64,000 nt of DNA from the NCBI GenBank assembly GCA_963773065.1, contig CAVYZN010000011.1:96001-160000 (forward strand), in the 5' to 3' direction. The stretch's first letter is position 1, and every line of letters starts with the position of its first letter. Positions 32,975 through 60,228 of the stretch are shown piece after piece. This DNA comes from an uncultured Gammaproteobacteria bacterium (GTDB lineage Bacteria; Pseudomonadota; Gammaproteobacteria; UBA9214). The position numbers were made by a program, and so were the translations under genes. The notes beneath the pieces are model-generated. The model searched no databases. It worked only from the letters and a program-made list of their open reading frames with translations, and was not told the DNA's origin.

Positions 32975-34284
32975 TTATGGGATCTTGCTGTCGATGGTGA
33001 TGGCGACGGTTTCGGAACCGCCGACGCTGACCGGGGATTTCGAACCCTCCAGGTCGCCGCTCTGCGGCATGGCGTTGCCGGAGGGGGAGACGCGGGCGCC
33101 GACCGTGACCTGCCCGAATTTCGACAGCGTCATGGCGGGTGACATGGCGAGCGAGTCATCCAGCGTGACCGTCACCGGCAAGTCTTTGACTTGCTTGCGC
33201 ACGATGGCGAGCGGCATGCGCGGGCCCTGGACGGCGCGCGCGAAGATGAACACGGTGTCCTCGGCACGGGCGTTCGCGGCCAGAGCAGGTGCCAGTGACA
33301 CCGTCACCTGGATCGCGCTGCCGGCGGCCGGTGTGCCGCTGGCGGTCGTCGAGGCGCTGCGGTCGGTGCCGTCGCGGCCGGTGCCGCAGCCGCAGCCGCG
33401 GGTTCCATGCCAAGGCGCTGCCGCACTTGGTTGATCTGCTGGGCGATGACCGCGGTGTCCTCGCTGCCCGCGGGGAGCAGGGCGGCGGCGCGCTGCCAGT
33501 AATCCAGCGCCTCGGTAGAGGAACCCTGCTGGTTTTTCCAGTGACCCATCAGCCACAGGGCCTTGACATTGTCGGGCTGGCCCTCGACGGCCCGTTGCAG
33601 CAGTTCACCCGCCTCATCGTTGAAGCGGCCGCCGTTGGCCATCACCAGCACATCGGCATAATCGGCCAGCAGTTCGGGGTTGTCGCCGCCGAGGCGGCGG
33701 GCGTTGCCATACGCGACGAGGGCATCGGCGTAGCGATTAAGGGTTTCGTTGCTTCTTGCCAGCAGGATCCAGCCTTGCAGGTCGTCGGGTTTCTCCTTCA
33801 GTCGCGCAGCCAGCACGTTGACCATTTCCTCCAGTGATTGCTTACCCATCTCATGTTGGGCCGGCGAGCTGGCGGCGGCGGTGGCGGTGGCGGTATTGCG
33901 CTGCTCCAGCAGCGGGATGATTTCCTTCGACCCGAGATGCTGATACAGCCCCACCGCCAGCAAGGGGATTGCCGCCACCAGCAGCAGTACCGCCCATTGG
34001 CCGCTACGGGCCGGTTTTAGCGTGGATCCCGAACCGGCAGGCGCGAGATCATCGAGCAGCTCGCATTCCAGGTCCCGGCGGGCGGCGGCGTACTGGTTCT
34101 CATCCAGCCGTCCGGTTTTGAGATCGGTTTCCAGTTCGGCGATCTGCGCCCTGATGACCTCGGTATTGAGCGTATCCTGATCCGGCTGCGACTTTGCGGA
34201 GCGCGACGCGCGCAGCATCCAGGGCACCGTAAACAACAGCGCGACGATGATCATGATGGCCGCCAATCCCCAGAAGACGCTCAT
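32975..34284 (-). CDS. ccmI: Cytochrome c biogenesis protein CcmI/CycH (frameshift near 33370)
   Basis: N-terminal TM, YQHLGS, TPR region (GWILLARS, ALWLMG), C-terminal VFIFARA..GPRMPLA..LPVTVTLDDSLAM. Confidence 0.88.
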
Positions 34285-34885
34285 TTCTGCTCGCCCTTCT
34301 CGGCCGCGGCGCCGAGGATTCCATCCAGGCGCTTGCGGTCTTCCGCGGAGATCGCCGGTTCCTGGACCTGCCGCTGCCGCCCCACCGCGCGCACCAGCAG
34401 CAGAGCGGCGATCGTCAGCAGCACGAACGGGCCATACCAGATGAGATACGTGGACGGTTTCACGGGAGGATTGTAAAGCACGAAGTCGCCATAGCGTTTG
34501 ACGAGAAAGTCGATGACCTCCTGGTCGCTCTTGCCGCTTTTCATTATCTCGTAGACCTCCGCGCGCAGGTCGTGGGCCAGATCGGCATCCGATTCGGCCA
34601 GGGTCTCGTTCTGGCATACCAGGCAGCGCAACTGGCCGATGAGATCCTTGAAGTGCTGCTCCTGCGCCTTGGTGGGGAAGGTGAAGGACTCGAGCGTTAC
34701 CGCGGCCGGCAGCGGGGCCGGCTATGACCAGCAAGAACAGCAGTATCGAAATAAGGAGGCTCTGAGTAAGCTGTCATTCCCGCGAAAGCGGGAATCTTGT
34801 CTGTCCAGGATCAGTGGGTTACTGGATCCCCGCTTTCGCGGGGATGACGTATTCAGAGTTTCCATACATTGTTCATCGGGTTCAT
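34281..34885 (-). CDS. ccmH: Cytochrome c biogenesis protein CcmH/CycL; 5' end interrupted by a palindromic element, plus an indel near 34705
   Basis: LRCLVCQNE, RYGDFVLYNPP. Removing 34755-34863 restores MNPMNNVFISILLFLLVIAG from an ATG overlapping the ccmG stop. Confidence 0.8.
34755..34863. mobile_element. 109-bp palindromic MITE/REP-like element
   Basis: Terminal IRs ggaggctctgagta / tattcagagtttcc enclose gtcattcccgcgaaagcgggaatc...ggatccccgctttcgcggggatgac. Confidence 0.75.
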
Positions 34886-35415
34886 GACTTCAATCTGGCG
34901 ACGATGGGCAGGATTTCCTCTTTAAGGATCTCGATGGTGATGGGGCCGACATGCTTGTGGCGGATGATGCCCTCCCGATCGATGATGAAGGTCTCCGGCG
35001 TCCCGTAGACCCCCCAGTCGATGCCCACGCGCCCGTCGCTGTCGAAGGCATTGGCGATGTAGGGATTGCCAAGCTGGGTAAGCCAGCGCTGGGCATCCGC
35101 GCGGTTGTCCTTGTAGTTCAGTCCGTAGATGTCGACCTGCCCTGTCCGCGCGAGCTGCACCAGCACCTCGTGTTCCCCTCGGCAGGACACGCACCAGGTC
35201 GCCCACACGTTCAGCAGGGAGACCTTCCCCTTGAAGTCGGCGTCGCTGATGGTGGCGGTAGGATCATCCAGGCGCGTGAGGGAGAACGCCGGGATGGGCT
35301 TGCCGACCAGCGGCGAGGGCACAATTTTCGGATCCAGGCTCAGGCCGCGAAAGAGTAGAGCGACCAGCAGCGCGAAGATCGCGAGCGGCACCAGGTAGCG
35401 CAGATAGCGTGCCAT
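34882..35415 (-). CDS. ccmG: Thiol:disulfide interchange protein CcmG/DsbE
   Basis: NVWATWCVSC, GLNYKD, GVYGTPETF. Confidence 0.95.
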   Translation of the reverse strand: MARYLRYLVPLAIFALLVALLFRGLSLDPKIVPSPLVGKPIPAFSLTRLDDPTATISDADFKGKVSLLNVWATWCVSCRGEHEVLVQLARTGQVDIYGLNYKDNRADAQRWLTQLGNPYIANAFDSDGRVGIDWGVYGTPETFIIDREGIIRHKHVGPITIEILKEEILPIVARLKS

Positions 35416-37422
35416 CAGGGGCTTCCGTTCGCGATCAGGCCGTCATTGCCGAGCGCGGCGGATGCCGGCACTTCATCACGCACCGCGATGCGGTAACGCC
35501 GGTCGCTCGCCGCGAGCAGTACCCCCGATGGCGATCAGCAGGCCGCCGAACCAGATCCAGCGTATGAAGGGCTTGTAGTACAGGCGCAGACTCCAGTCGC
35601 CATTGTCTAGCCCCTCGCCCAGCGAGACATAGATATCGCGGGTAAATCCCACATCGATCCCGGATTCGGTCATCGGCTTGGTCTGCACCGTGTAGACGCG
35701 TTTCTCCGGGTGCAGCAGGGCGACTTCGCGCTCGCCCCTCAAGACATGCACGGTGCCGCGATCGGCGCGGTAATTCGGGCCCTGGCGGGCCTGCACGCCG
35801 TCGAAGCGCAGGGTGTAACCGGCCAGGTCGGTGCTTTCGCCCGGCGACAGGCGGATGTCCTTCTCGACGTTATACTGCATCACGAAGGTCACGCCGATGA
35901 TGAAGACCGCCACACCGAAATGCGCCACCACCATGCCGTAATAACTGCCGCTGCCTTTCGTCCCCAGGTCTTGCCACAGCCCGGCCAGACCCTTGCGGTA
36001 GCGCAGCCGCTGGCGCAGGCTGAGCAACAGCGAACAGACGATCCACAGCGAGAGCGTCACCGCCAATCCAGCCCAGACCGAACCTTGGTGCAACAGCGGC
36101 AACGCGGTGAGGACGCCGCCGCCGAGGCTGACGAGCAGCGCGACGCGTAACTGCCGGGCAAGGTCGACCGGATCCTGGTGCTTCCAGCGCGACAGCGGCC
36201 CCATTCCCATGAGCACGACCAGGAAGGGGGTGAAGATCACGAACATGCGGTTGAACCAGGGAAATCCCACGGAGATCTTGCCCCAGCCGAGCGCGTCGTA
36301 GATCAGCGGGGCAAGCGTGCCCAGCAGCACGAAGGCCGTGATGATCACCAGCAGCAGGTTGTTTCCGAGCAGCAGCGTCTCGCGCGAGAACGCGTCGAAT
36401 CTGCCTCCCGAGGAGACGCTCGGCGCCCGCACGGCGTAGAGGCTCAGGGAACCCCCGATGACGATGCACAGGAAAATCAGGATAAAGAGTCCGCGGGCCG
36501 GATCCGAGGCGAAGGCATGCACGGAGGTGAGCACGCCGGAGCGCACCAGGAAGGTACCGAGCAGGCTGAGCGAGAAAGCCAGCAGCGCGAGCAGCACCGT
36601 CCAGCGCTTGAACGCGCCGCGTTTCTCGGTCACTGCCAAGGAATGAATCAGCGCCGTGGCCGCCAACCAGGGCATGAACGAGGCGTTTTCAACCGGATCC
36701 CAGAACCACCAGCCGCCCCAGCCGAGTTCGTTGTAGGCCCACCAGCTCCCGAGCGAGATGCCGATGGTGAGGAACATCCACGCCACCGTGGTCCACGGCC
36801 GCGACCAGCGTGCCCAGGACGCATCCAGTCTGCCGCCGATGAGGGCGGCTATGGCGAAGCTGAAGGCGACCGACATGCCGACATAGCCCATGTAGAGCAT
36901 GGGAGGATGGATCGCCAGTCCCGGATCCTGCAACAGGGGGTTCAGGTCGCCGCCTTCCAGGGGAACCGGGAAGACCCGCGCGAACGGGTTGGAGGTGAAC
37001 AGCAGGAAGGAGAGAAAGCCGATGCTCACCAGCCCCATGACGGAGAGCACGCGCGCCAGCACCACGGCGGGCAGGTGGCGGGCCAGCAGCGAGACGGCGA
37101 CCGTCCAGGAACTGAGGATGAGGACCCAGAGCAGCAGCGAGCCCTCGTGCGCGCCCCAGACGGCGGACACCTTGTAGACGGGGGGGAGCAGGGTGTTGCC
37201 GTTCTGGGCGACGTAGACCACCGAGAAATCGTCGTTCAGGAAGGAGCTGACCAGGCAGGCGAAGGCGATGGCAATAAAGAAAAACTGTCCCCAGGCGGCC
37301 GGGCGCGCCAGCGCGACCCAGCTCGGGGTGTTGTTGAGGCTGCCGATCATGGGAAAGATCGAGAGCACCAGCGCCAGGGAGAGGGCCAGGATCAGGGCGA
37401 GATGACCGAGTTCTGGAATCAT
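35415..37422 (-). CDS. ccmF: Heme lyase CcmF (frameshift near 35520)
   Basis: HEGSLLLW, LNPLLQDP, HPPMLYMGYV, WAYNELGWGGWWFWDPVENASFMPW, SVHAFA. Confidence 0.95.
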
Positions 37423-37886
37423 GGTTTTGTACCTCCGGTTGCGGCGCCTTCAGCGCCGTTCTTGTGAGCAGTCTTTAGCGCATCCGCCACTTCCGGCGGC
37501 ATGTATTTCTCATCGTGCTTGGCGAGCACTTCCTCGGCAATGAACAGGTTGCCGTCCTGCAGCCGTCCCCGCGCCACGATGCCCTGTCCCTCGCGGAACA
37601 GATCGGGCAGGATGCCGGTGTATTGCACCTTGATGGTCTCGGCATAGTCGGTGATATCGAAGGTCACGGTCAGACCGTCCTGCTGGCGCTTAAGGCTGCC
37701 GTCCGTGACCAGACCGCCGACGCGGATCAGGTGTCCGGCGGGCGCCTCGCCCCCGGCGACGGCGCTGGGGGTGTAGAAGAACATCAGGTTTTCGTTGAAG
37801 GCCTTGAGCGCGACGGCGATGGCGACGCCGACGCCGGCGACCATCATGGCGATCAGGATCAGGCGTTTCTTGCGTTTGGGTGTCAT
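37419..37886 (-). CDS. ccmE: Heme chaperone CcmE
   Basis: RVGGLV, LPDLFREGQG, LAKHDEKYMP. Confidence 0.96.
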   Translation of the reverse strand: MTPKRKKRLILIAMMVAGVGVAIAVALKAFNENLMFFYTPSAVAGGEAPAGHLIRVGGLVTDGSLKRQQDGLTVTFDITDYAETIKVQYTGILPDLFREGQGIVARGRLQDGNLFIAEEVLAKHDEKYMPPEVADALKTAHKNGAEGAATGGTKP

Positions 37887-38053
37887 GTGTTTCTCCTCGC
37901 GCGTCGTGCGCTGCGCGCGATATCAGCCAGCAGTTTCCTGCGCTGCCGGGCCGGCAGCAGGATATTGGCCAGCAGGACGATCAGGGCGATACCGTAGGAC
38001 GTCCACACGTAGAACGCGTATCCACCCATGTGAAAGAATTCATTCAGACTCAT
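37883..38053 (-). CDS. ccmD: Heme exporter protein CcmD
   Basis: MSLNEFFHMGGYAFYVWTSYG...; lies between ccmC and ccmE with ATGA overlaps. Confidence 0.9.
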   Translation of the reverse strand: MSLNEFFHMGGYAFYVWTSYGIALIVLLANILLPARQRRKLLADIARSARRARRNT

Positions 38054-38787
38054 TTTGACTCCGCGAGTTCTCTGACCCACTGGGTATTTCGTTCGCGCTC
38101 CAGGACTTCGCAGCGGGCGCGCATCAGGACCACCGTTGCATAATACAGCTTGAAGGCCACGGCCATCAGCAGCAGGGGGATCAGCATGCTGATATGGATG
38201 GATGGCGCGCCTAACTTGGTGACCGTGGCGCCCTGGTGCAGGGTGTTCCACCATTGCACCGAGTAGTGAATGATGGGAATGTTGACCACGCCCACGATGG
38301 TCAGGATGGCGGTGGCGCGCGCCGCCGTGCGCTTGTCCTCGACGGCGTTATAGAGCGCGATCACGCCGAGGTAGAGGAATAGCAGGATCAGCTCCGAGGT
38401 CAGGCGCGCATCCCATACCCACCAGGTCCCCCACATCGGCTTGCCCCAGAGCGAACCGGTGACCAGCGCGAGGAAGGTGAACGACGCCCCGATGGTCGCG
38501 CTGCTGATGGCAATCATCTCGGCCAGCTTGATGTGCCAGACCAGGCCGATGATGCCGGTGGCGGCCATCACCACGTAGACGAACATCGACATCCACGCGG
38601 CCGGCACATGGATGAACATGATGCGGTAGCTGTCGCCCTGCTGGTAATCCGGCGGCGCCTTCAGCAGGCCGTAGTACAGACCGGCCAGGATGAACAGCAG
38701 GCAGGATGCCGCCAGCCAGGGTATGAGACGGCCGGCGAAACTGTAGAAGTACTTCGGCGAGGCCATCTTGTGAAAGAACTGCATCAT
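38050..38787 (-). CDS. ccmC: Heme exporter protein CcmC
   Basis: HVPAAW, WGKPMWGTWWVWDARLTSEL, WWNTLHQ. Confidence 0.96.
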   Translation of the reverse strand: MMQFFHKMASPKYFYSFAGRLIPWLAASCLLFILAGLYYGLLKAPPDYQQGDSYRIMFIHVPAAWMSMFVYVVMAATGIIGLVWHIKLAEMIAISSATIGASFTFLALVTGSLWGKPMWGTWWVWDARLTSELILLFLYLGVIALYNAVEDKRTAARATAILTIVGVVNIPIIHYSVQWWNTLHQGATVTKLGAPSIHISMLIPLLLMAVAFKLYYATVVLMRARCEVLERERNTQWVRELAESK

Positions 38788-38808
38788 TAGGTTAGTACCG
38801 TAATTATT

Positions 38809-38976: not shown

Positions 38977-39660
38977 TCAACTCAGGCTGATGCGCAGGGC
39001 CGCGGCCGTGGCCGGCGGCGAGAGACTCAGGGCCATGACCAGCAGCGCGCTGATGAACAGCAGGTGAGCGGAGACCGGCAATCCGGCCGCGGCGGTATCG
39101 ACCGCACTGGCGGCGAAGATCAGCAACGGGACATACAAGGGTAGCACGAGCAGGGACAGGATCATCCCCCCCCTGCGCAATCCCACGGTCAGGGCCACAC
39201 CCACGGAGCCAAGCAGGCTCAGGACCGGCGTGCCCAACAGCAGGGTGAACATCAGGATGCGGATGCCGTCCCCGGTCAGTCCGAGCAGGACGCCGAGCAG
39301 GGGAGATACCAGCAGCAGCGGCAGGCCGGTGATCAGCCAGTGGGCGAGTACCTTGGCCAGCACCAGGATCGACACCGGGTGGGAACTCAGCAGGAACTGC
39401 TCCAGGGTGCCGTCCTCGAAATCGGAACGGAAGATGCCGTCGAGCGACAGCAGGGCGGCGAGCAGGGCGGCCACCCAGATCACCCCCGGGCCGATGGCCT
39501 GCAGCAGATTGGGGTTGGCCCCGACCCCGAGCGGAAACAGGCTGGTAACCAGGATGAAAAACAGCAGCGGGTTGATCATCTCGGCGCGATGCCGCATGGC
39601 CAGCGTCAAGTCGCGTTTCAGCAGCAGGGCAAATGCGCGGGTGAGTGAGTCGGAAGTCAT
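38977..39660 (-). CDS. ccmB: Heme exporter protein CcmB
   Basis: LFPLGVG, DFEDGTLEQ, LLVLPLYVPLLIFA. Confidence 0.95.
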   Translation of the reverse strand: MTSDSLTRAFALLLKRDLTLAMRHRAEMINPLLFFILVTSLFPLGVGANPNLLQAIGPGVIWVAALLAALLSLDGIFRSDFEDGTLEQFLLSSHPVSILVLAKVLAHWLITGLPLLLVSPLLGVLLGLTGDGIRILMFTLLLGTPVLSLLGSVGVALTVGLRRGGMILSLLVLPLYVPLLIFAASAVDTAAAGLPVSAHLLFISALLVMALSLSPPATAAALRISLS

Positions 39661-40274
39661 GCGGACAGATTGATATGATGCGCCGGGGTCTTCACGAGGT
39701 TGACCGTGTGATGGGAGGTCATGGCCAGCATGCCGCCGTCCTGGGTGTGCGCCTCCAGCAGTCCCTCGATCAGCCCGATGCCGTGCACATCGAGCGAGGT
39801 AAACGGCTCGTCCAGGATCCACAGCGGCGCGTCGACGACCAGCAGGCGCGCCAGCGCCAGGCGGCGCTGCTGCCCGGCCGACAGATTGCGCGTCAGCACG
39901 TCCTCGTAGCCGTACAGATCGACCTGTTCCAGCACCGCCTCCAGCGTCATGTCGCTGGGTTTGCCCAGCGCGCGCGCCATGGCGAGATTTTCCAGCGGCG
40001 TCAGGTCTTGCTTGATGCCGTCGCGGTGTCCGACATAGGCCGTGTGCTCGTGGTAGTCGGGCCCCAGGTGATTGATGTCTTTGCCGCACCAGTTCACGCT
40101 CCCGGCATCCGGCAGGCGGATGCCGCACAGGATGCGCAGCAGGGAAGTCTTGCCGCTGCCGTTGCGGCCCTCCAGCAGCAGCGCCTGCCCGGCTTCGAGC
40201 CGGAACGCCAGGTCGCGGAACAGGGTGCGGTCATCGCGTATGCACTCCAGCCCAATGGCTTCGAGCGCCAGCAT
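39657..40274 (-). CDS. ccmA: Heme exporter ATP-binding protein CcmA
   Basis: GRNGSGKT, LSAGQQRRLALARL, WILDEPFT, TSHH. Start could be as far up as 40334. Confidence 0.95.
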   Translation of the reverse strand: MLALEAIGLECIRDDRTLFRDLAFRLEAGQALLLEGRNGSGKTSLLRILCGIRLPDAGSVNWCGKDINHLGPDYHEHTAYVGHRDGIKQDLTPLENLAMARALGKPSDMTLEAVLEQVDLYGYEDVLTRNLSAGQQRRLALARLLVVDAPLWILDEPFTSLDVHGIGLIEGLLEAHTQDGGMLAMTSHHTVNLVKTPAHHINLSA

Positions 40275-40728
40275 GTTGTTATACGATTGGGTCACTGCTA
40301 TTCGATTTGGAATCAATACATTTATTGTTAACACTGCCTATAGCCAAGCAAATGATACTCCCCGGGAGTAACCAGCCCAACTGGGAAAAGTATCGGGTTA
40401 AATAACCACAGATGCGTTGTGTCTGTATTAAAAAAAGGGGCGAGTAGGTCGCCCCTGTGCAGGAAAGGCCGGAACTAGAGAACAGCTCGGCCCTGAAAAC
40501 CACATTGTGATCGCTCTCTGGTTAACTGTGATCACACCAACCGTGATCACACCAACGCCACCCCCTTTCGCCGTGGTCCTGCCGCCGGCCGCGAGGGCCG
40601 ATGCAGTCACCGGGATTGCGCTTCCGACTTATAGTATAGGCACTATTCGTGCCGATTTGTGAACACTGGTATTTCAGTAGGTTAGTAACAGCGTGTCACG
40701 CGCAGATAATAGTTTGTCATGACAAGCA

Positions 40729-40775
40729 TGACAATAATGTCTATATTGTGGCTTCTACGTATGACATTATTGTCA
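40729..40775. promoter_or_regulatory. Two TGACA-N4-TGTCA boxes upstream of the activator (divergent ccm/activator region)
   Basis: tgacaataatgtct and tgacattattgtca; the same palindrome lies upstream of all three cytochrome genes. Confidence 0.6.
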
Positions 40776-40827
40776 TTAAGAATGGCTCGTTGAGGGCTGC
40801 GTTACATTTCACCCGGAGGATATAATA

Positions 40828-42447: not shown

Positions 42448-42485
42448 ACTGACATTTGTGACATGACGGACAGACAAATTTGTCA
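42448..42485 (+). promoter_or_regulatory. Upstream activator sequence, copy A
   Basis: actgacatttgtgacatgacggacagacaaatttgtca aligns ungapped with 48514-48551 and 53342-53379. Confidence 0.7.
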
Positions 42486-42595: not shown

Positions 42596-42612
42596 TCGGC
42601 ACAGATGTTGCT
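42596..42612 (+). promoter_or_regulatory. Sigma-54 -24/-12 promoter, cytochrome A
   Basis: tcGGcacagatgttGCt (GG-N10-GC). Confidence 0.75.
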
Positions 42613-48513: not shown

Positions 48514-48551
48514 ACTGACAGATATGACATGACAGAAGGACAAAACTGTCA
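48514..48551 (+). promoter_or_regulatory. Upstream activator sequence, copy B
   Basis: actgacagatatgacatgacagaaggacaaaactgtca. Confidence 0.7.
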
Positions 48552-48660: not shown

Positions 48661-48677
48661 ATGGCATATCTATTGCT
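48661..48677 (+). promoter_or_regulatory. Sigma-54 -24/-12 promoter, cytochrome B
   Basis: atGGcatatctattGCt. Confidence 0.8.
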
Positions 48678-51720: not shown

Positions 51721-51727
51721 TTCCCTC

Positions 51728-51758
51728 AAGGGGTACCCGTCCGGTACCCCTTTTTTTT
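51728..51758 (+). terminator. Rho-independent terminator
   Basis: aaggggtacc-cgtcc-ggtacccctt-tttttt. Confidence 0.75.
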
Positions 51759-51763
51759 GAAAG

Positions 51764-52657
51764 AAAAGGGGACATTCTGGTTTTTTAACTACCGTCTATG
51801 AGGCTGTCTACCATGAAGTGGTCAGAGAATCGACGATGAATTTCTGAAACTCACGGAATGCCATAAATTGGCCTCATTCCCGCAAGACTAAGTGCAGTCC
51901 CCGTCGTCCACGCTATTGGCAATTGTGTCAGCATCAGGAGTTGACGGTGTTGTCAGGCTTGCGTAAGGTTCCGGCATGCCAAGGACGGCACGCGCTTCGG
52001 TCGGGGGGCTGTGTTACCACGTAATCAATCGTGGCAATGCACGAGCTCCTGTGTTCCACGACTCGTCTGACTATCAGGCGTTTGTTCGTCTGATCGGTGA
52101 AGCCTGCACGCGCTTGTCATTGGATGTGCTGGCCGCCTGCCTGATGCCTAATCATATCCATCTCGTTTTGCGGCCCTATAGCGACGGGGACCTAAGCCGG
52201 TGGATGCAGTGGTTGTTGACCGCCCATGTTCGCCGTTATCACCGCCGCTACGGATCGAGCGGTCATGTGTGGCAGGGGCGTTTCAAGGCATTTCCAATTC
52301 AACACGATGCGCATCTGCTGCAGGTTATGCGCTATGTGGAGCGAAACGCATTGCGGGCAAATCTGGTTGTTCGCGCCGAAGACTGGCGATGGGGAAGTCT
52401 TGCCTGGAGGTGCGCCGGGCGCCCTGCGTCGCTTTTGGCATTGCCGCCGGTATCGCTTCCTGACGACTGGTTGGTTCGAGTCAACGCGCCGGAATCCGAA
52501 GTTGAGCTGGCGGCGTTGCGTCGAAGTGTCAACCGTGGCGCCCCGTTCGGGGATGCTGCCTGGGTTGAAGAAACGGCCATAGACCTGGGGCTGGAATCCA
52601 GTGTACGGCCTCATGGGCGTCCACGTAAGAGCAGGGAAAAGTAGAATGTCCCCTTTT
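51764..52657. mobile_element. Y1 (RAYT-like) transposon bounded by 15-bp perfect terminal inverted repeats
   Basis: aaaaggggacattct (51764-51778) and agaatgtcccctttt (52643-52657) enclose the transposase gene. Confidence 0.7.
51976..52644 (+). CDS. REP-associated tyrosine transposase (HUH/Y1, IS200-like)
   Basis: MPRTAR, YHVINRGN, LMPNHIHL (HUH), GHVWQGRF, RYVERN, W.WGS, GRPRK. Confidence 0.9.
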   Translation: MPRTARASVGGLCYHVINRGNARAPVFHDSSDYQAFVRLIGEACTRLSLDVLAACLMPNHIHLVLRPYSDGDLSRWMQWLLTAHVRRYHRRYGSSGHVWQGRFKAFPIQHDAHLLQVMRYVERNALRANLVVRAEDWRWGSLAWRCAGRPASLLALPPVSLPDDWLVRVNAPESEVELAALRRSVNRGAPFGDAAWVEETAIDLGLESSVRPHGRPRKSREK

Positions 52658-53158
52658 TACTTGCCGATCAGTTTCTCGATGGCTTGTATCATGTCCGGGT
52701 CATCCCAGTCGCGCGGGCCGTAGGCCACATGACTGAACGCGGCCTTGCGGATCGATCAGGAAACTGGTCGGATAGATATCGATCCCCCAGTCGGAGGCGG
52801 TCTGGCCGTCGCGGTCCAGCAGCAGGGGAAAATGAACCTGCACCTTGGCGGCGAACTTCCACACCGTGCCGGGTGACTCCTCGACATTGACGGCGAGGAG
52901 GGTAAAGGGCTTCCCGGCCATGGCCTCCTGCAGGCGTTGCATGCTGGGCATCTCGATCACGCAGGGCGCGCACCAACTGGCCCAGAAGTTCACCAGCACC
53001 ACCCGGCCGCGATAGTCCTGCAGCGAGTGGGCCTTGTGTCCCAGATCCTCCAGTGACAGCGCGGGTGTCTGACCGAAGCCCTGGTAGGGATCCAGTTGAC
53101 CCGCCGCCGGGCAGGACAGGTATAAGAGCATCAGCAGGCCAGTGAAGTATTTGATCAT
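52657..53158 (-). CDS. TlpA-family thiol-disulfide oxidoreductase (frameshift near 52735)
   Basis: Signal peptide; VNFWASWCAPC..EMP, YPTSFLID. Corrected tail AYGPRDWDD...KLIGK*. Confidence 0.88.
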
Positions 53159-53341
53159 GACGTGCAGCATACCCACAATCATCACGTACTGCCACGCGGC
53201 TGGATACGACGGCGTACCGCGCCGGCCGTATGGGCGGTGGTGGTTGTCGCCTGCCGGGCCGCAATACGGGAACACCCCACCAAACCCCGGATTTCCCCTG
53301 TGCAATATCCGGGCAACCTGTCAGACAAATCTGACAACGGT

Positions 53342-53379
53342 CCTGACATATGTGGCAGACCACCATGACAGAACTGTCA
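53342..53379 (+). promoter_or_regulatory. Upstream activator sequence, copy C
   Basis: cctgacatatgtggcagaccaccatgacagaactgtca. Confidence 0.68.
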
Positions 53380-53442: not shown

Positions 53443-53459
53443 CTGGCATAACAATTGCT
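53443..53459 (+). promoter_or_regulatory. Sigma-54 -24/-12 promoter, cytochrome C
   Basis: ctGGcataacaattGCt. Confidence 0.8.
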
Positions 53460-53594: not shown

Positions 53595-56500
53595 ATGTGT
53601 ACAAAAACTCTGCTGAAGATGGCACGACGCGTGTTGCGGCTGGCGGCCGGTAGCCTGGCCGTCCTGACACTCGCTGCCCCGAATGCGTGGGCGGCGTTGA
53701 CCTGTAGTATTACACCGACGAATGGCACCGCGACGGTCAATGTGCCGTTTACCTTTACCGCCAACATAGCGGGGCAAAAGGGCCAGGTAACCTATGCCTG
53801 GACCTTCTCCGGGCCGGCCACGCCGACGACCTCGACCAGTTCGTCGCAGGCCGTGACCTACAGCACGGCGGGCGGACCGTTTGCGGTCAATCTGCACGTC
53901 GTCACGACCAAAAGCGGCGAGTGCACTGCCGCGACCAACGTGACGTGGTAACGGGCGGCACCAACAATCCGCCGGTCGCCAATGCCGACAGCTATAACGC
54001 CACCCAGGGCACGCTGCTGAGCGTGGGCGCCCCGGGCGTGCTCGGCAACGACACCGATGAGACCCAGGCGACGCTGACGGCCGTGCTGCAGGTGACGACC
54101 ACCAAGGGCACCCTCACCCTGAACGCGAACGGCTCGTTCACCTACAACTACACGGGCACGGGCACGTTACCCACGACGGATACCTTCACCTACAAGGCGC
54201 GTGAGGGGCAGACCCCCTTCCAGCTTTCCAACACCGCGACGGTGACGATCACCATTTCGGCGGCGGGCGCCAGCGGTTCGCCGGTCGGGCCGCGGCGACA
54301 CCTACGCGACCCCGGTGGGCACCACCCTGAACGTGGCGGCCTCGCGCGTCTCCGGCGTGCTCTACAACGACTTCGACACCGACTCCCTAGGCAACCCGAT
54401 TCCGGGTTCGGCCTCCACGCTGACGGCGCAGTTGATCACGGCCCGGCCAACGGCACCCTGACGCTGAACAGCCAACGGTTCGTTCACCTATACGCCGAGC
54501 ACGAGCCTGAGCGACAACGCCAACGACAGCTTCACCTACAAGGCGCGGGACCCCAATGCCAACCTGTCGGCCGTGACGACGGTGAACATCAACATCCTGT
54601 CGAAGCAGACGGATTACAAGATCATGATGAACTACGAGCTGGGCATGCACTGCACCGGCTTCGAGTTTGCCTATTGCTGCGTCCTGCCGCCCTACAACTC
54701 GATCCTGGCGCAGGTGGTGAAGCCGCAGGCCGTGGAACCGCCGGTGACGGGTGGCGATTTCCCGCGCCTGCTCTCGGGTGATCCCGGCAACGTGGACGGG
54801 CTGGGCCGCTCGAACGTGCTGCGCGACGCGCAACTGGACGGCTCCGGCAAGTTCAAGAAGTTCTACCTGGAGTACTACCACGACGCGCAGCCGCGCCACG
54901 AGGGTCAGGGCAAGGTGCAGACCTCGACGCTGATCAGCAACGTGGAGGGCAACTCGATGTTCTACACCTCGACCAAGTACGACTCGGCGGCGGTGGATGC
55001 CAACGGCAAGCTGGTGACGGGGACCTACGAGGGGGCCTACGGCGTGGTGAAGGGCGACGGGGACTTGACCGACGCGACCGACAACTACGCCAACGGCTGG
55101 CTGAACCACTTCTACATCTACTCGGACCTCGAGGGCAGCAACCCGCTCAACACCAGCCTGGAGACGAACAAGATCCGCCTCGGCGTGACCAATGGGACCA
55201 AGGGGATAGTGTATCCGGCCAACACGGGCGCGGCGCTGCAGCCGATGGGTCCGACGGGCAGCGCCTCGGGCTTCGACAACGTGCTGACGTTCTCGGGCGA
55301 GAGTGGCACGGTGGTGTACACGCAGATGAAGGTGCTGGAGAACCTGCCGATCATGCTGACCTCCCCGCGCATCTGGGAGGCGCTCGGTCTGCCGCTGGAC
55401 CCGTTTGAGGATACGATCAGCTTCTTCGCCGATCCGGGGCTGGTGAACGAGGACTCGATCCGTCCCTACGTGGAGATGAAGGCGGCGCTGCACACGGCCA
55501 CCTGCGATGCGAACGGACATAACTGCACCGAGGGTGCGGCGGTGATCGGCAGCAACGGCAAGCCGGTGATCGGATTTGGCACGGCGCCGATCGACATCCC
55601 GAACTGCGAGCGCTGCCACTCGGTGCCGGCGTTCACCAACAGCCTGCCGAACGTGAACAGCCCGAGCTACGTGCGCCGTCCGGGCACGGCGGCTCCCTTC
55701 GTCAAGACGCGGTGGTTCGTATGCCGGGGCGAGCCTGGAGGCGATCACCACGGGGGAGAAGAACTACTGGGATGCCTATTACGGCATCAGCACGGCGGCG
55801 GGGGATTCCGACTGGTACTCGCGCTTGAAGGGTGCGGCGATCAACATGCTGGCGCTGCATGACTTCGACAACGGCACCGGCTTCACGGCCAACTGGCCGG
55901 CCTGCGGCAGCGACCATGCGCCGCCGAGCACCTGTGCCGCGCCGGTGCAGAACACGCGGCTCGGCAAGGAGAGCGTGATCTGCCAGAAGTGCCATGCGGA
56001 CAACGTGATCGCGGTGGTGAAGTCGGCCTACAAGGATGCGGGCTTGACGCAGTTGATCAAGCCGATCACCGAGGCGATCCATCACCGGCACCGTGAGGTA
56101 GCGAGGGCGGCAGCATCAACTTCGCCGATAACGCCGGTCGCAGCGGCGGCTGTCAGGGTTGTCATCCGGCGCACCGTTCCGACGGCGTGATGGACGGCTA
56201 TCCGATCAGCTATGGCGGTACGAACGTCCAGGCGCAGAGCGACAACCGCCTGGCGGCGGGCGGCTGCTTCGTGGGCCGCGACGTGCACTCCAACGCGCTG
56301 AAGGACGTGGACGGGGCGGAGACGCCGGCGCACTTGAATGCGGTGGGCACCTATCTGTCGACCAACGTGTTCAACAACCAGGACGGGGTGGCCGGTGTGT
56401 CCGGTTCGCCGACGCGCGGTCTGTGGTGCACCAACTGTCACAGCCAGTTGGGTCAGGAGCTGTGGCGCGACGGAGAACTGTACGGACCTCATCAACAACA

Positions 56501-57653
56501 TCTGCACCACCAACCCGCGCGGGCAGTCGACGCTGTCGGCGGTGGCCGCGGCGGTGGGCGGTGAGCCAGGCGCAGGCGATTGCCTGGATGGATCCGACCA
56601 ACACCAACGCGCTGGGTGATTTCACCCATGCGATCTGGGATCCGGCGATTGCCGATGCCAACCTCGCGACCATCGAGGTGCGGGGTGGACAGCCCTTCGG
56701 CACCACGGATGCCGATGGAGACTTCTCGGTGCGCATCCTCAACTTCTGCACCACCGCGGACTGCGTGTCGGCGGCCCAGACGGTGCTGAACGGCGAGGGT
56801 AACGGCGGCACGGCGGTTGCCGTACCCTTCAGCGCGGCGACCGACGGCCGGGATCACTGGCTGGCGGCGGGTGAGCCGCACTGCGCGGACTGCCATGCGC
56901 CGCCCTATGTGGAGCCAAGCGGCGGCAACGTCGGCGAGGACACCCGTTCGGGTGAGACCAAGTTCAAGCCGCCGTTCAACTATCCGCGCAAGGCGAGCCT
57001 GATGCGCTACTCGAAGGGCCACCAGGGGGTGAGCTGTCAGGGCTGTCACGAGTCGATTCATGGTCTGTATCCGGTGACCCCGACGATCGACTCGACCAGC
57101 CTACGCGCAGGCGGCGGCGCTCAATGCGGACGGTTCGCACGGCCCGCTGAAGTGCGGCACCTGCCATGCGGTGGGCAGCGACGGCAGGCCGACCTGGATC
57201 AAGAAGCACGCTCTTCGGCTCGACCTTCGATGCCGCGGTGGGCTGGGCGCATACCTACACGGACGATGCCAGCCCGCTCGACTCGACCTGCCAGAACTGC
57301 CACGCCGATCGCCGCACCAGCATCAGCGAGTCGAGCGGCAGGTGGTTGCGGCACTCCTTCGTGGGACGCATCGGCCGGCAGACGCAGGACAAGGTCGAGA
57401 TGCCCAGTTGGGCCACGTGGCCGGTGATCCGGACACCAACGGCGACGGCATCAACGACCGCACGGCCACGCAGATCGCGAGCGGGGTCTGCGCCAACTGC
57501 CACGCGACCAACGGCGGGCCTTCGGGCAACTTCCTCAGTCTGGTCACCTGCAGCAACCTGACCTGGAAGCAGCACCTGGTCCAGGGCCGGCTGTCGCCCA
57601 AGGTCTGGGAGTTCATCTCCACCGCCCAGACGGGTTCGACCTGCGACTGGTAA
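53595..57653 (+). CDS. Large secreted multiheme cytochrome c 'C', paralog of A (PKD + two Big_9-like domains, 9 CxxCH); many frameshifts
   Basis: PPVANADSY..GVLGNDTD..GTLTLNANGSFTY; MNYELGMHCTGFEFAYCCVLPPYN. Hemes CERCH, CQKCH, CQGCH, CTNCH, CADCH, CQGCH, CGTCH, CQNCH, CANCH. Ends TCDW*. Confidence 0.85.
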
Positions 57654-57929: not shown

Positions 57930-58027
57930 GGCATTATGATCAGAGCTTGCCATAAAAAACGAGATACTCCGGCCACAATCGGACCCTGACGTATCATTCA
58001 CATTCATTGAATTCGGGAAAATGCACT

Positions 58028-59542
58028 ATGAAGCGATTATTACGTGATTCCTTGCTGTTTTCTTTTGTACTGGTTTCCATCGGCCTGCAGGGCGCCTGCG
58101 GCAAGGAACCGCCGCAGAGTAGCGGCGGCAGCGGGCAGGACAGCGCCGCGGCATCCTCGGCGCCCGCGACGGCGGAGCCGCTGACCGATGATGTGATCGC
58201 GACCGTGGGTGACCAGAAGATCACCTTCAGCGAGATCAACACCATGCTGAACAGTTCGGCGGTGGTGGGGGTATCCCTGCCGGCCATGGGCACGCCCGAG
58301 CGCGACACGGTGCGCATCACGCTGCTCGACAAGATGGTGAGCGCGAACCTGATCTATCTGGATGCGCTCAAGCAGGGTCTGGACAAGGACCCGGACTACC
58401 AGCGCGAGATCGAGCGGTTCTCGGACGGAATACTGACGGCGCTGTACCGCAACACGTTTCTGCTGAAAGGGATGGAGGTCAGTGACGCCGAGGTCGAGGA
58501 CTTCTTCAAAAAGTCGACTGCGCCGGGGACGGAATTGACCGATGACGAGCGCACGGCGCTCAAGGCGACGCTGCGCAAGCAGCGGCTCACCGAGAAGGGC
58601 GGGGAACTGCGCGCTACGCTGCGCGAGGGTGTTACCGTGGAGATCAACGACGCGGAGATGGATCCGCTCAAGGATGCCGAGCGCGCCGATACCGCGGTGC
58701 TGGCCACGATAGACGGGGCGCCGTTTACCTGGGGCGCGGTCAAGGAGCAATTGGGCGCCGCGGTCAGTTCGACCTCCAGTGACCAGCGCCGTGAGGCGGT
58801 GAATTCGCTGGTGGATGAACGCATCATGGTCAACAAGGCCAAGGCGAACGGGCTCGAGCAGGACCCGGTCTACCAGGCGCGTTTCGCGGAGTTCCGCAAG
58901 ACCCGCCTGATCAACCTGCATCGCAACAATCTGGTAAAGACCATGGAGCCGAGCGACGCGGATCTGCGCGCCTATTTCGAGGCGAACCGCGCCCGGATCA
59001 CCATCCCGGAGTTCCGCAAAGTGCAGATGGTCGTGCTGAAGACCGAGGATGAGGCCAAGGAGATCAAGCGCAAGATCGATGCCGGCGAGATGACCCTGTA
59101 CCAGGCGGCGGCCGATCATTCCATCGCGCCCGAAGCCAAGGAGAACCTGGGCGAGATCGGCTGGGTGGAGAAGGGCAAGGCCCTGCCGGGATTGAACGAT
59201 GTCGTCTTCGCCCTGGGCCCGGGCGAGATCGGGGGGCCGGTGCAGGTGGGCGATGTCTGGCATCTGGTGATGGTGCAGGACGTGCGCGCGCCGCAGTATG
59301 CCGACTTCGAGGAGGAAAAGACCCGTACGATGACGCGGCGCCGGTACCTCCATGAGAAGCTCGACGAATATACCGCCAGGCTGCGCGAGAAGGAATTCGA
59401 GGTGAAGGTCGATGAGGACAAGCTGATCCGCCTGGCGCAGCAGGAAGCGGACATGGTGAAAGAACTCGCGGAAAAGGCCCAGCAACCGGGTTCCGAGACC
59501 GAGAAGCGCCTCGGGGAACTCCAGAAAATGCTGAAGCAGTAA
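58028..59542 (+). CDS. PpiC/parvulin-type peptidyl-prolyl isomerase (copy 2), possible lipoprotein
   Basis: Paralog of 46965-48470 (DDVIATVGDQKITFSEIN...RRYLHEKLD); signal ends GAC-GKE. Confidence 0.88.
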   Translation: MKRLLRDSLLFSFVLVSIGLQGACGKEPPQSSGGSGQDSAAASSAPATAEPLTDDVIATVGDQKITFSEINTMLNSSAVVGVSLPAMGTPERDTVRITLLDKMVSANLIYLDALKQGLDKDPDYQREIERFSDGILTALYRNTFLLKGMEVSDAEVEDFFKKSTAPGTELTDDERTALKATLRKQRLTEKGGELRATLREGVTVEINDAEMDPLKDAERADTAVLATIDGAPFTWGAVKEQLGAAVSSTSSDQRREAVNSLVDERIMVNKAKANGLEQDPVYQARFAEFRKTRLINLHRNNLVKTMEPSDADLRAYFEANRARITIPEFRKVQMVVLKTEDEAKEIKRKIDAGEMTLYQAAADHSIAPEAKENLGEIGWVEKGKALPGLNDVVFALGPGEIGGPVQVGDVWHLVMVQDVRAPQYADFEEEKTRTMTRRRYLHEKLDEYTARLREKEFEVKVDEDKLIRLAQQEADMVKELAEKAQQPGSETEKRLGELQKMLKQ

Positions 59543-59624
59543 GGGTGTCGAACCCGCCGTTCGGCATCGCTGCGGTCACGGCGCCGGATGGCGGGGGCCA
59601 GTGTCCATACATAAAGGAACAAAC

Positions 59625-59756
59625 TCACCGCAAAGACGCGCGACTACAGGGATGTAGGAGGTAGGGCAACGCCGGGAGCGGTTGCCGAAAGTTCGCGAAG
59701 AAACTTATTAACAAAAACAATTAAACGGCTTTGCGTTCTTTGCGCCTTTGCGGTGA
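59625..59756. repeat. Palindromic repeat family 'caccgcaaag' with a 48-bp nested insert
   Basis: tcaccgcaaagacgc[gcgactacagggatgtagg...gttgccg]aaag...gcctttgcggtga. Confidence 0.7.
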
Positions 59757-59800
59757 AAATGGTGTTTATGGATGTACCCTAAACTAGGCGGAAGAACCTC

Positions 59801-60228
59801 ATGAACTGGTGTGATCTTGCACGAATGGCCACCGTCATGCTCCTGCTGGCTTGGGTGCGCTGGCCGTTCAGGCCGAGGAGATGATGTCGACGGCGATGAC
59901 GCCGGAAGAGGTCAAGGCCAAGCTGGGCACGCCGCAGGCGCCGCTCATCGTGGACGTGCGCACGCCGGTGGAGTTCGGCATCGCCCACCTGCCCGGCGCC
60001 GTCAACATCCCGCTGGCGGAACTGGAGAAGCGCCTGGACGAACTCCGGCAGGACCACGGCAACGGCGTGCTCATCTACTGTCTCAACGGTTCCCGGACGC
60101 TACAGGCCGAGCCGATCCTCTATACGCACGACATAGACAACGTTTACCACCTCGAAGGATCCCTCGAGGGATGGTTGCTGAAAAACTATCCGATCGAGAA
60201 GGGCGGGGTTAACAGGAAGACGTGGTAG
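59801..60228 (+). CDS. Secreted rhodanese-domain protein (frameshift in signal region)
   Basis: IVDVRTPVEF...HLPGAVNIP, YCLNGSR active loop, LEGSLEGW. Confidence 0.85.

Follow-up and report, generated by a model that had tools for sequence, protein, structure and literature searches.

A 64,000-nucleotide stretch of the genome of a sulfur-oxidizing soil bacterium (the window) encodes three large exported cytochromes with nine hemes each. They belong to two unrelated families, A (cyt1 and cyt3) and B (cyt2), and the only widely conserved arrangement within the locus is the pairing of a family A gene with a gene for a foldase. Sigma-54 control of the cytochrome genes is well supported by the predicted promoter elements. 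As a tentative explanation, the genes may form a sigma-54 regulon of surface cytochromes that trade electrons with a partner outside the cell or in insoluble form; we favor it over the view that family A is a periplasmic redox enzyme.

The locus and its host

The source genome contains dsrA and RuBisCO genes, and carriers of family A are mostly sulfur-oxidizing Gammaproteobacteria, with record names including Thiogranum, Sulfuricaulis, and Chromatiaceae. These names bear out the gammaproteobacterial host proposed in an earlier note on this DNA. A Pfam scan of 29-64 kb of the window (Table 1) also recovered the gene content that the note had described: a complete ccmABCDEFGHI operon on the minus strand, a divergent activator gene with PAS, Sigma54_activat, and HTH_8 domains, two large foldase genes with Rotamase_2 and SurA_N domains (their products, PpiC1 and PpiC2, are 55% identical), and a TlpA-like gene (AhpC-TSA/Redoxin). 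The rhodanese gene is present as well; the note described its product as secreted, but no signal peptide was seen in its frame. The ccmI gene is spread over two overlapping frames and breaks somewhere in the interval from about 33310 to 33459. A gene resembling REP-associated tyrosine transposases, absent from the earlier note, lies inside the locus (51976-52644), and two conserved members, the DUF2059 gene and an orphan open reading frame (ORF), sit past the end previously assigned to the locus.

Table 1. Features of the cytochrome locus (positions in the window)
Feature	Positions	Strand	Evidence or remark
ccmI (TPR and Ig-like CycH domains)	32978..34280	-	Pfam TPR_CcmH_CycH 82.5 bits, Ig_CycH 145.7 bits
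ccmH	34284..34721	-	Pfam CcmH 165.4 bits
ccmG/DsbE-like thioredoxin	34885..35442	-	Pfam Redoxin 77.2 bits
ccmF	35479..37449	-	Pfam CcmF_C 410 bits; single tblastn match in genome
ccmE	37422..37922	-	Pfam CcmE 122.6 bits
ccmD	37883..38060	-	Pfam CcmD 64.4 bits, residues 77-119 of ORF 37883-38254
ccmC	38053..38808	-	Pfam Cytochrom_C_asm 141 bits
ccmB	38977..39650	-	Pfam CcmB 252 bits
ccmA	39660..40337	-	Pfam ABC_tran 100.6 bits
TGACA-N4-TGTCA palindrome upstream of activator gene	40762..40775	.	
PAS-sigma54 enhancer-binding activator, Cys/His-rich sensor	40794..42236	+	Pfam Sigma54_activat 212.8 bits, PAS_4, HTH_8
Candidate palindromic upstream activator site of cyt1	42459..42485	.	
Candidate -24/-12 site of cyt1, CGGCACAGATGTTGCT	42597..42612	+	One mismatch to TGGCACN5TTGCW
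cyt1, family A nonaheme cytochrome	42747..46626	+	Signal peptide; PKD, Big_9/cadherin, and orphan (330 aa) domains; nine hemes, sparsely spaced
TGACA..TGTCA palindrome between cyt1 and PpiC1	46884..46908	.	
PpiC1, SurA-N and parvulin foldase paired with cyt1	46950..48470	+	Pfam Rotamase_2 79.5 bits
Candidate palindromic upstream activator site of cyt2	48525..48551	.	
Candidate -24/-12 site of cyt2, TGGCATATCTATTGCT	48662..48677	+	TGGCACN5TTGCW search
cyt2, family B nonaheme cytochrome	48767..51788	+	Signal peptide and CarboxypepD_reg domain; nine hemes in a compact block that includes an MtrC/MtrF II-IV type domain
TlpA/ResA-like thiol-disulfide oxidoreductase, divergent from cyt3	52703..53320	-	Pfam AhpC-TSA 85.9 bits; NCBIfam ResA 101 bits (below cut-off)
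Candidate palindromic upstream activator site between TlpA and cyt3	53366..53379	.	
Candidate -24/-12 site of cyt3, TGGCATAACAATTGCT	53444..53459	+	TGGCACN5TTGCW search
cyt3, second family A nonaheme cytochrome, cyt1 paralogue	about 53595..57653	+	
PpiC2, foldase partner of cyt3 and possible lipoprotein	58007..59542	+	Pfam Rotamase_2 70 bits; ..LQGAC, by eye
Single-domain rhodanese	59815..60228	+	Pfam Rhodanese 64.4 bits
DUF2059 protein with signal peptide, recurrent neighbor	60307..60780	-	Pfam DUF2059 63.7 bits
Orphan 170-aa ORF, recurrent neighbor	60930..61442	+	Pfam and NCBIfam: no match

Two cytochrome families, one conserved foldase pair, and sigma-54 control

The cytochrome genes, which are split by frame breaks (see below), were mapped piecewise on intact homologues, and CxxCH motifs were counted only in the frame agreeing with the homologue. 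The resulting proteins of about 1290 (cyt1), 1005 (cyt2), and 1350 (cyt3) residues have nine motifs each, in agreement with the earlier note (1000-1350 residues, nine motifs), and so do all six intact homologues examined. Each carries an SPase I-type signal peptide for Sec export. Pfam confirmed the Ig-type domains: cyt1 and cyt3 have PKD and Big_9/Cadherin_4, and cyt2 has CarboxypepD_reg. In family A, the Ig domains are combined with an orphan domain of 330 residues and sparse hemes (about 80 residues per heme versus 47 in family B), whereas family B joins its CarboxypepD_reg domain to a compact heme block that includes an MtrC-type pentaheme domain. Cyt2 exceeds the Pfam cut-off for the MtrC/MtrF II-IV domain (50.8 and 52.3 bits versus 30); the last part of this domain is weakly matched by 24 of 24 family A members (best E value, 1.8e-9). 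The earlier note could not place the cytochromes in any characterized multiheme family, and in our searches no NCBIfam model scored above its cut-off and no PDB relative was found by sequence or profile; both families are uncharacterized and lack a curated model.

A PpiC gene lies within 1.5 kb downstream of the family A gene, on the same strand, in 56 of the 60 loci that have at least 1.8 kb downstream of it, and the two partners are co-inherited (Spearman coefficient, 0.40; n = 64, kin not being independent). Among 78 related loci, TlpA was found near family A genes in 37, a homologue of the orphan ORF in 23, a rhodanese in 19, DUF2059 in 16, and ccm genes in 8. The cyt2 family normally stands alone. 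Since the ccm operon is the only one in the genome (ccmC, ccmE, and ccmF are single copy), it is not dedicated to the cytochrome locus. The earlier idea of a self-contained system was not supported, and that of dedicated maturation and folding genes survives for the family A foldase but not for the general Ccm system; of the cytochrome-ppiC-ccm-activator synteny suggested for checking, the cytochrome-PpiC link recurs widely and the ccm link rarely. The rhodanese hints weakly at a sulfur link; a role in periplasmic thiol-redox chemistry, as a helper protein, would explain it just as well.

The proposal of sigma-54 control fared well: in addition to the activator, rpoN is present in the source genome, and each cytochrome gene is preceded by a candidate -24/-12 site and by a palindrome of the form TGACA-N-TGTCA. 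TGGCACN5TTGCW with at most one mismatch occurs six times in the window, three of them just upstream of cyt1 (about 135 nucleotides before the ATG at 42747), cyt2, and cyt3; among 71 related loci, 26 have a similar site ahead of the family A gene (background, 0.02 per 1300 nucleotides). The palindrome TGACA-N4-24-TGTCA has six matches in the window versus 1.05 expected (none of 100 shuffles reached six), all of which fall in intergenic regions of the cytochrome locus; of 71 related loci, 16 have the palindrome as well (background, 0.047). The activator motif C-x4-H-x5-C-x6-C-P-H is kept in 12 of 18 aligned neighbors.

Surface electron exchange and its alternatives

In the favored explanation, the Cys/His-rich PAS enhancer-binding protein would turn on the three genes, each from its own -24/-12 promoter, and each family A cytochrome would be co-produced with a private SurA-like parvulin foldase. 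The TlpA-like thiol reductase, the rhodanese, the DUF2059 protein, and the orphan ORF product would serve as further periplasmic helpers, and hemes would be attached by the cell's single general Ccm system, next door by chance. Exported perhaps by a type II secretion system, the mature cytochromes would be held by Ig-like stalks at the outer membrane or outside it and exchange electrons with a mineral, sulfur, or another cell; an MtrAB-type conduit and a CymA-like quinol dehydrogenase would carry electrons across the envelope.

An extracellular role is plausible on the basis of predicted features: the SPase I signals, the N-terminal PKD, Big_9, cadherin, or CarboxypepD_reg domains, the dockerin, cohesin, or TSP_3 domains of some relatives, the MtrC/MtrF II-IV domain of cyt2, and a GspD gene in the source genome. 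Prolyl isomerases also accompany large cytochromes in operons proposed for extracellular electron transfer (EET), as described in the available parts of PMC5539420 and PMC10734462. On the one hand, the absence of a porin noted earlier holds for the window, where no MtrB/PioB match was found, and that of a quinol dehydrogenase and a molybdoenzyme for the scanned 29-64 kb; neither a porin nor a periplasmic decaheme occurs at the locus or as a conserved neighbor in the 78 related loci, which argues against a surface function. On the other hand, contig C30 of the same genome carries genes for an MtrB/PioB porin (TIGR03509, 500 bits), DmsE/MtrA-like and OmcA/MtrC-like decahemes (the latter TIGR03507, 296 bits), and a NapC/CymA-like protein; thus, the organism lacks neither the porin nor the quinol dehydrogenase. 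With a genome contamination of 6.3%, C30 could be mis-binned, although MtrB matches occur in all four genomes of the genus. Within the taxonomic family, MtrB was found in 24 of the 31 family A carriers versus 7 of the 23 genomes without family A. In the sister genome G001, an OmcA/MtrC-like decaheme lipoprotein gene is inserted between the activator gene and cyt1. Against a surface role, MtrB/PioB was not found in the other 7 of the 31 family A carriers, nor in two Ca. Thiodiazotropha and one Sedimenticolaceae genome with the module among five tested.

It is possible, though somewhat less probable, that family A is instead a periplasmic multiheme oxidoreductase in which the orphan domain and one heme form the active site for a sulfur compound or another inorganic one; electrons would leave through the remaining hemes for soluble c-type cytochromes, maturation would be aided by the foldase, TlpA, and rhodanese, and the Ig domains would be optional spacers. 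Identity across orders (49-77%) is unusually high for a surface cytochrome, the hemes are sparse, and many non-heme residues are invariant in 80 aligned sequences, including H23, C24, C32, C33, and C567 (P0124 numbering). The orphan domain, too, has invariant Cys and His, which looks more like an enzyme; however, seven intact members contain neither CxxCK nor C-x5-20-CH, and by count the invariant His are numerous enough for each of the nine hemes to have bis-His ligation. This domain was found only with hemes (cytochrome domains in 11 of 12 distant relatives tested), and its fusion to a class I cytochrome c domain (Cytochrome_CBB3/Cytochrom_C) in two of them points to a periplasmic partner, but there is no quinol dehydrogenase or FeS partner among the conserved neighbors of family A. 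The core is retained without Ig domains in the Ca. Thiodiazotropha and Sedimenticolaceae forms, whereas the adhesin-type domains, dockerin, and cohesin of other members favor a surface location. The sulfur-oxidizing hosts and the recurrence of TlpA and rhodanese would suit such an enzyme; cyt2 would be left unexplained.

It is improbable that the cytochromes polymerize or stack, as OmcZ or OmcS does, to give conductive filaments or a matrix outside the cell, with the Ig domains removed or used for assembly. The cytochromes are exported, heme rich, and equipped with Ig-like domains, cyt2 has a compact heme chain, and OmcZ is produced with C-terminal Ig domains that are later cleaved (PMC9473688, in the part available); however, the present cytochromes have their Ig domains at the N terminus, the conserved neighbors of family A include no subtilisin-like protease, none of the solved filament cytochromes was related in sequence, and a simple wire would need hemes more closely spaced than those of family A.

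The frame breaks are single-base assembly errors, and the locus is not decayed. Frame changes number six in cyt1 (between 44040 and 45325), two in cyt2 (near 49117 and 51287), and at least seven in cyt3. Contigs from other runs, 95-99% alike, differ by a single dropped or added base at 55709, 56101, 56469, and 56559, exactly where cyt3 changes frame; because these independent short-read contigs lack the breaks and because dsrA and rpoN are split too, we read the breaks as assembly errors, and the indel check that the earlier note advised gave no support for decay. A decaying remnant with real frameshifts and cytochrome pseudogenes is the least probable explanation of all: the three genes together have at least 15 frame changes and the G001 orthologue is fragmented as well, but each break consists of one base too many or too few, with no nonsense codon in the homologue-matching frame where followed, the fragments share 52-84% identity with intact homologues along most of their length (31% in the last ~190 residues of cyt3), the split genes include the essential dsrA, rpoN, and ccmI, and uninterrupted frames of 1260-1352 residues exist in other genomes of the taxonomic family.

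Comparison with known systems

The outer-membrane deca- and undecahemes of Shewanella-type Mtr systems, OmcA, MtrC, and MtrF (UndA) are likewise exported multiheme proteins; cyt2 shares their pentaheme domain type, and an Mtr conduit is encoded in the same genome. However, the cytochromes described here have nine hemes rather than ten, none of the three matches TIGR03507 at an E value of 0.001 or better, and they have an SPase I signal without the lipobox that is a feature of OmcA, MtrC, and MtrF. Their genes do not lie beside mtrAB, a private foldase is present, and Ig-like, CarboxypepD_reg, and orphan domains are added.

The earlier note ascribed a PpiC-type isomerase to the Geobacter omcZ locus, and MccB of the sulfite reductase clusters we take to be a prolyl isomerase. 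The available part of PMC9473688 does not mention a PpiC in the omcZ locus; there, the nanowire protein OmcZ is a multiheme cytochrome made with Ig domains, but it is an octaheme whose C-terminal Ig domains are cut off by the protease OzpA, which has no counterpart here. The octaheme sulfite reductases MccA/SirA are large multiheme enzymes of sulfur metabolism that, according to the available part of PMC6976685, depend for maturation on dedicated helper genes in their own cluster. They differ in a special heme motif with a long spacer and in an additional heme lyase; the seven intact members examined here lack this motif, and the source genome has a single ccmF. The SEEP-SRB1/Desulfuromonadales operon for which EET was proposed also joins very large exported cytochromes (16 and 26 hemes) to a dedicated prolyl isomerase; it differs in heme numbers, phyla, and a separate six-bladed beta-propeller protein, and the available part of PMC5539420 reports no sigma-54 control for it. 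The Uet (undecaheme electron transfer) cluster of cathode-oxidizing Tenderiales, compared by description only (PMC10734462, in part), holds undecaheme, tetraheme, three triheme, and NHL-repeat proteins and its own porin, and none of these listed components is a conserved neighbor here; yet it, too, is an EET cluster of a gammaproteobacterial autotroph in which a peptidylprolyl isomerase, UetB, stands beside multiheme cytochromes.

Gene content and reading frames of the locus

The ccm genes, which the earlier note had called a complete operon, were each matched by Pfam from ccmA to ccmI. The two genes that lie past the rhodanese, where that note ended the locus, recur near relatives elsewhere. 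The second of them, an orphan ORF, has two acidic DxDxDG-like loops (found by eye) that recall the calcium-binding loops of dockerins or EF hands; some members of family A, the family of cyt1 and cyt3, also bear dockerin, cohesin or TSP_3 domains.

Positions of the locus genes, DNA elements and related genes (window coordinates unless another stretch of the source genome, G000, or the sister genome, G001, is named)
Feature	Position	Strand	Remark
RtcB RNA ligase, archease, Hsp20	29356-32755	-	adjoin the ccm operon; order same in G001
ccmA, B, C, D, E, F, G, H, I		-	complete System I operon
29-nt hairpin	34820-34848		near ccmG/ccmH
29-nt hairpin	46743-46772, 57848-57873		after cyt1 and cyt3
Candidate activator-binding palindromes	40762, 42459, 46884, 48525, 53366		
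PAS/sigma-54/HTH_8 activator	40794-42236	+	
CACGGAA-repeat element	42333-42399		upstream of cyt1
-24 GG/-12 GC sites	42597, 48662, 53444		one mismatch each
cyt1	42747-46626	+	large cytochrome gene
PpiC1	46950-48470	+	SurA-N/parvulin foldase
cyt2	48767-51788	+	second cytochrome
Y1-transposase-like gene	51976-52644	+	between cyt2 and TlpA
TlpA-like gene	52703-53320	-	divergent
cyt3	about 53595-57653	+	third cytochrome
PpiC2	58007-59542	+	second foldase
Rhodanese	59815-60228	+	
DUF2059 gene	60307-60780	-	
Orphan ORF	60930-61442	+	
MtrCAB-like cluster with NapC/CymA-like gene	L089 (G000:C30) 122-7451		at contig end
MtrB/PioB-type porin	L089 (G000:C30) 122-1942		
MtrA-like gene	L089 (G000:C30) 2278-3360		frame-broken
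OmcA/MtrC-like gene	L089 (G000:C30) 4009-6028		frame-broken
NapC/CymA-like tetraheme gene	L089 (G000:C30) 6750-7451		
929-aa cytochrome	L090 (G000:C12) 3071-5857	-	
dsrA	G000:C27:22982-24194		in two adjacent frames
rpoN	G000:C23:40699-42130		in two adjacent frames
Decaheme lipoprotein	L009 (G001) 12676-15267	+	

None of the three cytochrome genes is a single open frame. Stop-to-stop fragments were mapped individually on intact homologs from the protein collection, with the pieces left unjoined, which placed six frame changes in cyt1 (between 44040 and 45325), two in cyt2 (near 49117 and 51287) and at least seven in cyt3. The sequence at the junctions is that of the homolog's codons plus one extra base, and no nonsense codon was found in the homolog-matching frame where that frame was followed. 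Contigs from four public runs were then aligned to window 42400-57800; the sampled words were covered to 0.26 at most in any sequencing run. In up to three runs, contigs of 95-99% similarity have one base fewer at 55709, 56469 and 56559 and one base more at 56101, which are exactly frame-change positions. The cyt1 breaks have no entries among the indels listed (63 further ones stand outside that list), and cyt1 region 44224-44525 is spanned by just one 300-letter contig, with two gaps. The genes ccmI, dsrA and rpoN are likewise split over two frames; the split dsrA and rpoN point to probable genome-wide single-base errors in this assembly. Because breaks are missing in other contigs, other genes are split, identity of the fragments to intact proteins stays at 52-84% for most of their extent (about 31% over the last ~190 residues of cyt3) and other genomes of the taxonomic family have uninterrupted family A frames of 1260-1352 aa, we conclude that the breaks are consensus errors rather than decay. 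Real frameshifts in a decaying remnant, a prospect raised in the earlier note, are thus highly improbable given the other-run contigs that lack the breaks at four cyt3 positions. Programmed frameshifting was rejected, as the breaks are too many and too irregular and are absent from other contigs. The case is a caution that intact loci can look decayed in long-read metagenome genomes. Contigs of an RNA library (X2) match parts of cyt1, PpiC1, cyt2 and cyt3, a placement that alone is no proof of transcription.

Several small DNA elements punctuate the locus. The inserted Y1/IS200-like gene most resembles REP-associated tyrosine transposases (Pfam Y1_Tnp 63.6 bits, over the cut-off; NCBIfam NF047646, REP_Tyr_transpos, 73.4 bits, under the 80-bit cut-off). 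At the corresponding position the sister genome has no DNA match to it; the source genome has four weaker paralogs elsewhere, and REP-like hairpins are close by. The 29-nt GC-rich hairpin (CCCCGC..GCGGGG core), with at least nine copies across the source genome, looks like a REP element and perhaps acts as an intra-operon attenuator between cytochrome and foldase genes. In metagenome contigs, 46770-46867 is replaced by many different short sequences; gene rearrangement at these joints was set aside in favor of a variable REP-like spacer. The CACGGAA element has 10 partial copies elsewhere in the source genome and three in the stretch of the sister genome.

Regulation and genomic neighborhood

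Sigma-54 control, as the earlier note had proposed, agrees with the activator's domains (PF00158, the AAA+ sigma-54 interaction domain, 212.8 bits; AAA_lid_14; HTH_8), an rpoN gene elsewhere in the genome (TIGR02395, 455 bits), sites upstream of the three cytochrome genes and enrichment in relatives. The window has six matches to TGGCACN5TTGCW at one mismatch or fewer, three of which sit 90-150 nt upstream of cytochrome start codons. Because the total of looser matches is not above chance, it is the placement of these predicted sites that counts, not their number. Upstream of family A genes elsewhere, a sigma-54-like site is enriched (26/71 loci), and so is a palindrome, TGACA-N4-24-TGTCA (16/71 loci). 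The palindrome was observed six times against 1.05 expected, and this locus has all six copies, one each ahead of the activator, cyt1, PpiC1 and cyt3/TlpA and an overlapping two ahead of cyt2. The PAS domain carries C-x4-H-x5-C-x6-C-P-H in 12 of 18 aligned neighbor activators, the remaining six being receiver-type activators. For such a Cys/His PAS domain, sensing of redox state, metal or sulfane sulfur is a fair guess, and the activator may be a sensor of this kind.

For family A there are 633 matches in the protein collection and, among species genomes, 137 relatives. Gammaproteobacteria provide most of the 78 loci retained, with a few records labelled otherwise; carriers are recorded as Thiogranum, Ectothiorhodospiraceae, Ca. 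Thiodiazotropha, Sedimenticolaceae, Chromatiaceae and Sulfuricaulis. Of the cytochrome-PpiC-ccm-activator order, the first part recurs: among the 60 loci with at least 1.8 kb downstream of the family A gene, 56 have a same-strand PpiC homolog that begins no more than 1.5 kb downstream, and three of the other four have one upstream. The rest holds less well, with a sigma-54 activator within 10 kb in 22 of the 78 loci and ccm genes in just 8. On the same count, TlpA is near family A in 37 loci, the orphan ORF in 23, rhodanese in 19, DUF2059 in 16 and family B in 6. Neighbor clustering agrees with these counts and adds a PAS histidine kinase in 14 loci; no recurrent porin, quinol dehydrogenase or protease was found near family A across the 78 loci. 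Cytochrome and foldase subtypes are co-inherited.

The maturation genes had been taken for dedicated ones, a view that the genome does not bear out. Because ccmC, ccmE and ccmF each occur once, the ccm operon appears to be the cell's general cytochrome maturation system, and a dedicated second Ccm system was rejected on the same single copy. Family B, that of cyt2, is patchy (2/300 evenly drawn genomes of the class). Among 80 metagenome loci it has family A nearby in three, PpiC in two and no other recurrent neighbor, with none outside close relatives; because of this patchiness without recurrent neighbors, cyt2 is probably a lineage-specific recruit to the locus.

The sister genome has the same order from ccm to rhodanese as the window, and differs in having no cyt3-PpiC2 pair there, in lacking the transposase-like gene and in having an extra decaheme lipoprotein between the activator and the cyt1 ortholog. 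This 864-aa protein has ten CxxCH motifs and a collagen-like Gly-X-Y stretch after its lipobox, and is distantly OmcA/MtrC-like (TIGR03507 106 bits, below the cut-off). A kinship with family B was dismissed, as a profile probability of 19.5% is no evidence.

Cytochrome families and readings of their function

Counted in homolog-matching frames, cyt1, cyt2 and cyt3 each have the nine CxxCH motifs claimed for them, as do 6/6 intact homologs. The paralogs cyt1 and cyt3 (67% at the DNA level) share the family A layout, in which a signal peptide is followed by PKD and Big_9/cadherin domains, a highly conserved orphan domain of 330 aa and nine hemes over ~650 residues. The Ig part is optional, and many relatives begin at the orphan domain. 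The C-terminal Cys-Gly-Trp is invariant in 80/80 aligned family A proteins (window about 46615-46623). In family B, a signal peptide and CarboxypepD_reg are followed by ~300 more residues and nine hemes within 380 residues, a block that includes the Pfam MtrC/MtrF II-IV domain. The two profiles have ~100 columns around three heme motifs in common (92% probability), and we treat them, on these profiles, as separate families.

The orphan domain has no Pfam, NCBIfam or Atlas match; Pfam found nothing on all 24 members of the family A alignment at E up to 1, and the ESM Atlas gave no usable match to the domain alone and only generic cytochrome c7/MtrC-domain clusters for the whole protein. A search of 1.84 billion representatives led to 166 proteins; 11 of the 12 distant ones examined are also cytochromes, two with a fused class I cytochrome c domain. 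The description of these cytochromes as uncharacterized stands: neither family reaches any NCBIfam cut-off, PDB searches by sequence and profile gave chance-level matches and no solved relative, and a full-text literature search found no paper on either. A pentaheme selenoenzyme paper is, in the part available, unrelated to both (PMC13510729).

The earlier note was right that the window holds no MtrB-like porin, whereas the genome does have one: contig C30 carries an MtrB/PioB porin, a DmsE/MtrA-like decaheme, an OmcA/MtrC decaheme and a NapC/CymA-like tetraheme. In 54 genomes of the taxonomic family, whose kin are not independent, MtrB/PioB was found in 24 and not found in 7 of the 31 with family A, and found in 7 and not found in 16 of the 23 where family A was not found. 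Among five further carriers, MtrB is present in one Thiogranum and one Sulfuricaulis genome; a search of the other three, two from Thiodiazotropha and one from Sedimenticolaceae, did not find it. The source genome also has dsrA, RuBisCO and GspD. A further cytochrome of 929 aa on contig C12, with nine CxxCH and PKD domains, was matched by neither the family A nor the family B queries at the cut-offs applied.

The regulon, export and private foldase are well founded, unlike the job of the nonaheme cytochromes. Surface electron exchange is our tentative reading, held at somewhat less than even confidence. In its favor are domains of adhesin type, an MtrC-type domain in cyt2, an Mtr conduit elsewhere in the genome that loosely co-occurs with family A, the sister locus's OmcA-like gene, and the precedent of isomerases in proposed extracellular electron transfer clusters, as the available portions of two papers describe them (PMC5539420, PMC10734462). 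That family A is instead a periplasmic enzyme seems rather unlikely; what speaks for it is that family A is conserved and sparse in hemes, has invariant Cys and His in its orphan domain and occurs in genomes where MtrB was not found, and that relatives have fused class I cytochrome domains. Filament formation by the cytochromes is very improbable.

A joint reading, which we regard as doubtful, would make family A a new multiheme oxidoreductase class with the invariant His/Cys of the orphan domain as its catalytic or docking site; sulfur-oxidizing autotrophs would pass electrons directly to or from solid sulfur, metal minerals or partner cells, under a redox-sensing sigma-54 activator and with a private foldase essential for assembly. 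If true, it would span soil Thiogranum-like bacteria to Thiodiazotropha symbionts of lucinid clams. Sulfur-oxidizing Gammaproteobacteria play a large part in soils, sediments and animal symbioses, and the locus bears on whether and how they trade electrons with solid phases or other cells. Here, two large nonaheme families for which no curated model, solved relative or paper was found appear under one inducible switch, and in many genera one of the two stays paired with a foldase of its own. Activator, DNA sites, cytochrome and foldase form a defined, testable set for asking what nine-heme proteins do.

Comparison with named multiheme systems

OmcA/MtrC decahemes have ten CxxCH motifs against nine in the window genes. 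The family model TIGR03507 (curated NCBIfam cut-off 209.3 bits) scores 295.8 bits on contig C30, and has no match at E 0.001 or better on P0132 and P0002, intact proteins of families A and B. PF22113, the MtrC/MtrF domain II/IV pentaheme fold, reaches 50.8 and 52.3 bits on cyt2 (cut-off 30) and is borderline on family A (30.7 bits in P0132, 23.2 in the window fragment). OmcA/MtrC are encoded beside mtrA/mtrB, unlike the window cytochromes, which have no porin or MtrA beside them in the window or among conserved neighbors of the 78 loci; the Mtr genes of this genome are on C30. The MccA/SirA octaheme sulfite reductase differs in having an atypical long-spacer heme motif and a dedicated second heme lyase, neither of which was found here: C-x5-20-CH and CxxCK are absent from seven intact members, and ccmF is single-copy.

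The Uet cluster, as given in the available part of its description (PMC10734462), comprises the undecaheme UetJ, tetraheme UetA, trihemes UetDEG, NHL proteins, the porin UetC and the isomerase UetB. The recurrent neighbors of family A loci include no porin, NHL protein or cluster of small cytochromes. Going by that description rather than by a sequence comparison of the isomerases, the isomerase alone is what the Uet cluster and this locus have in common.
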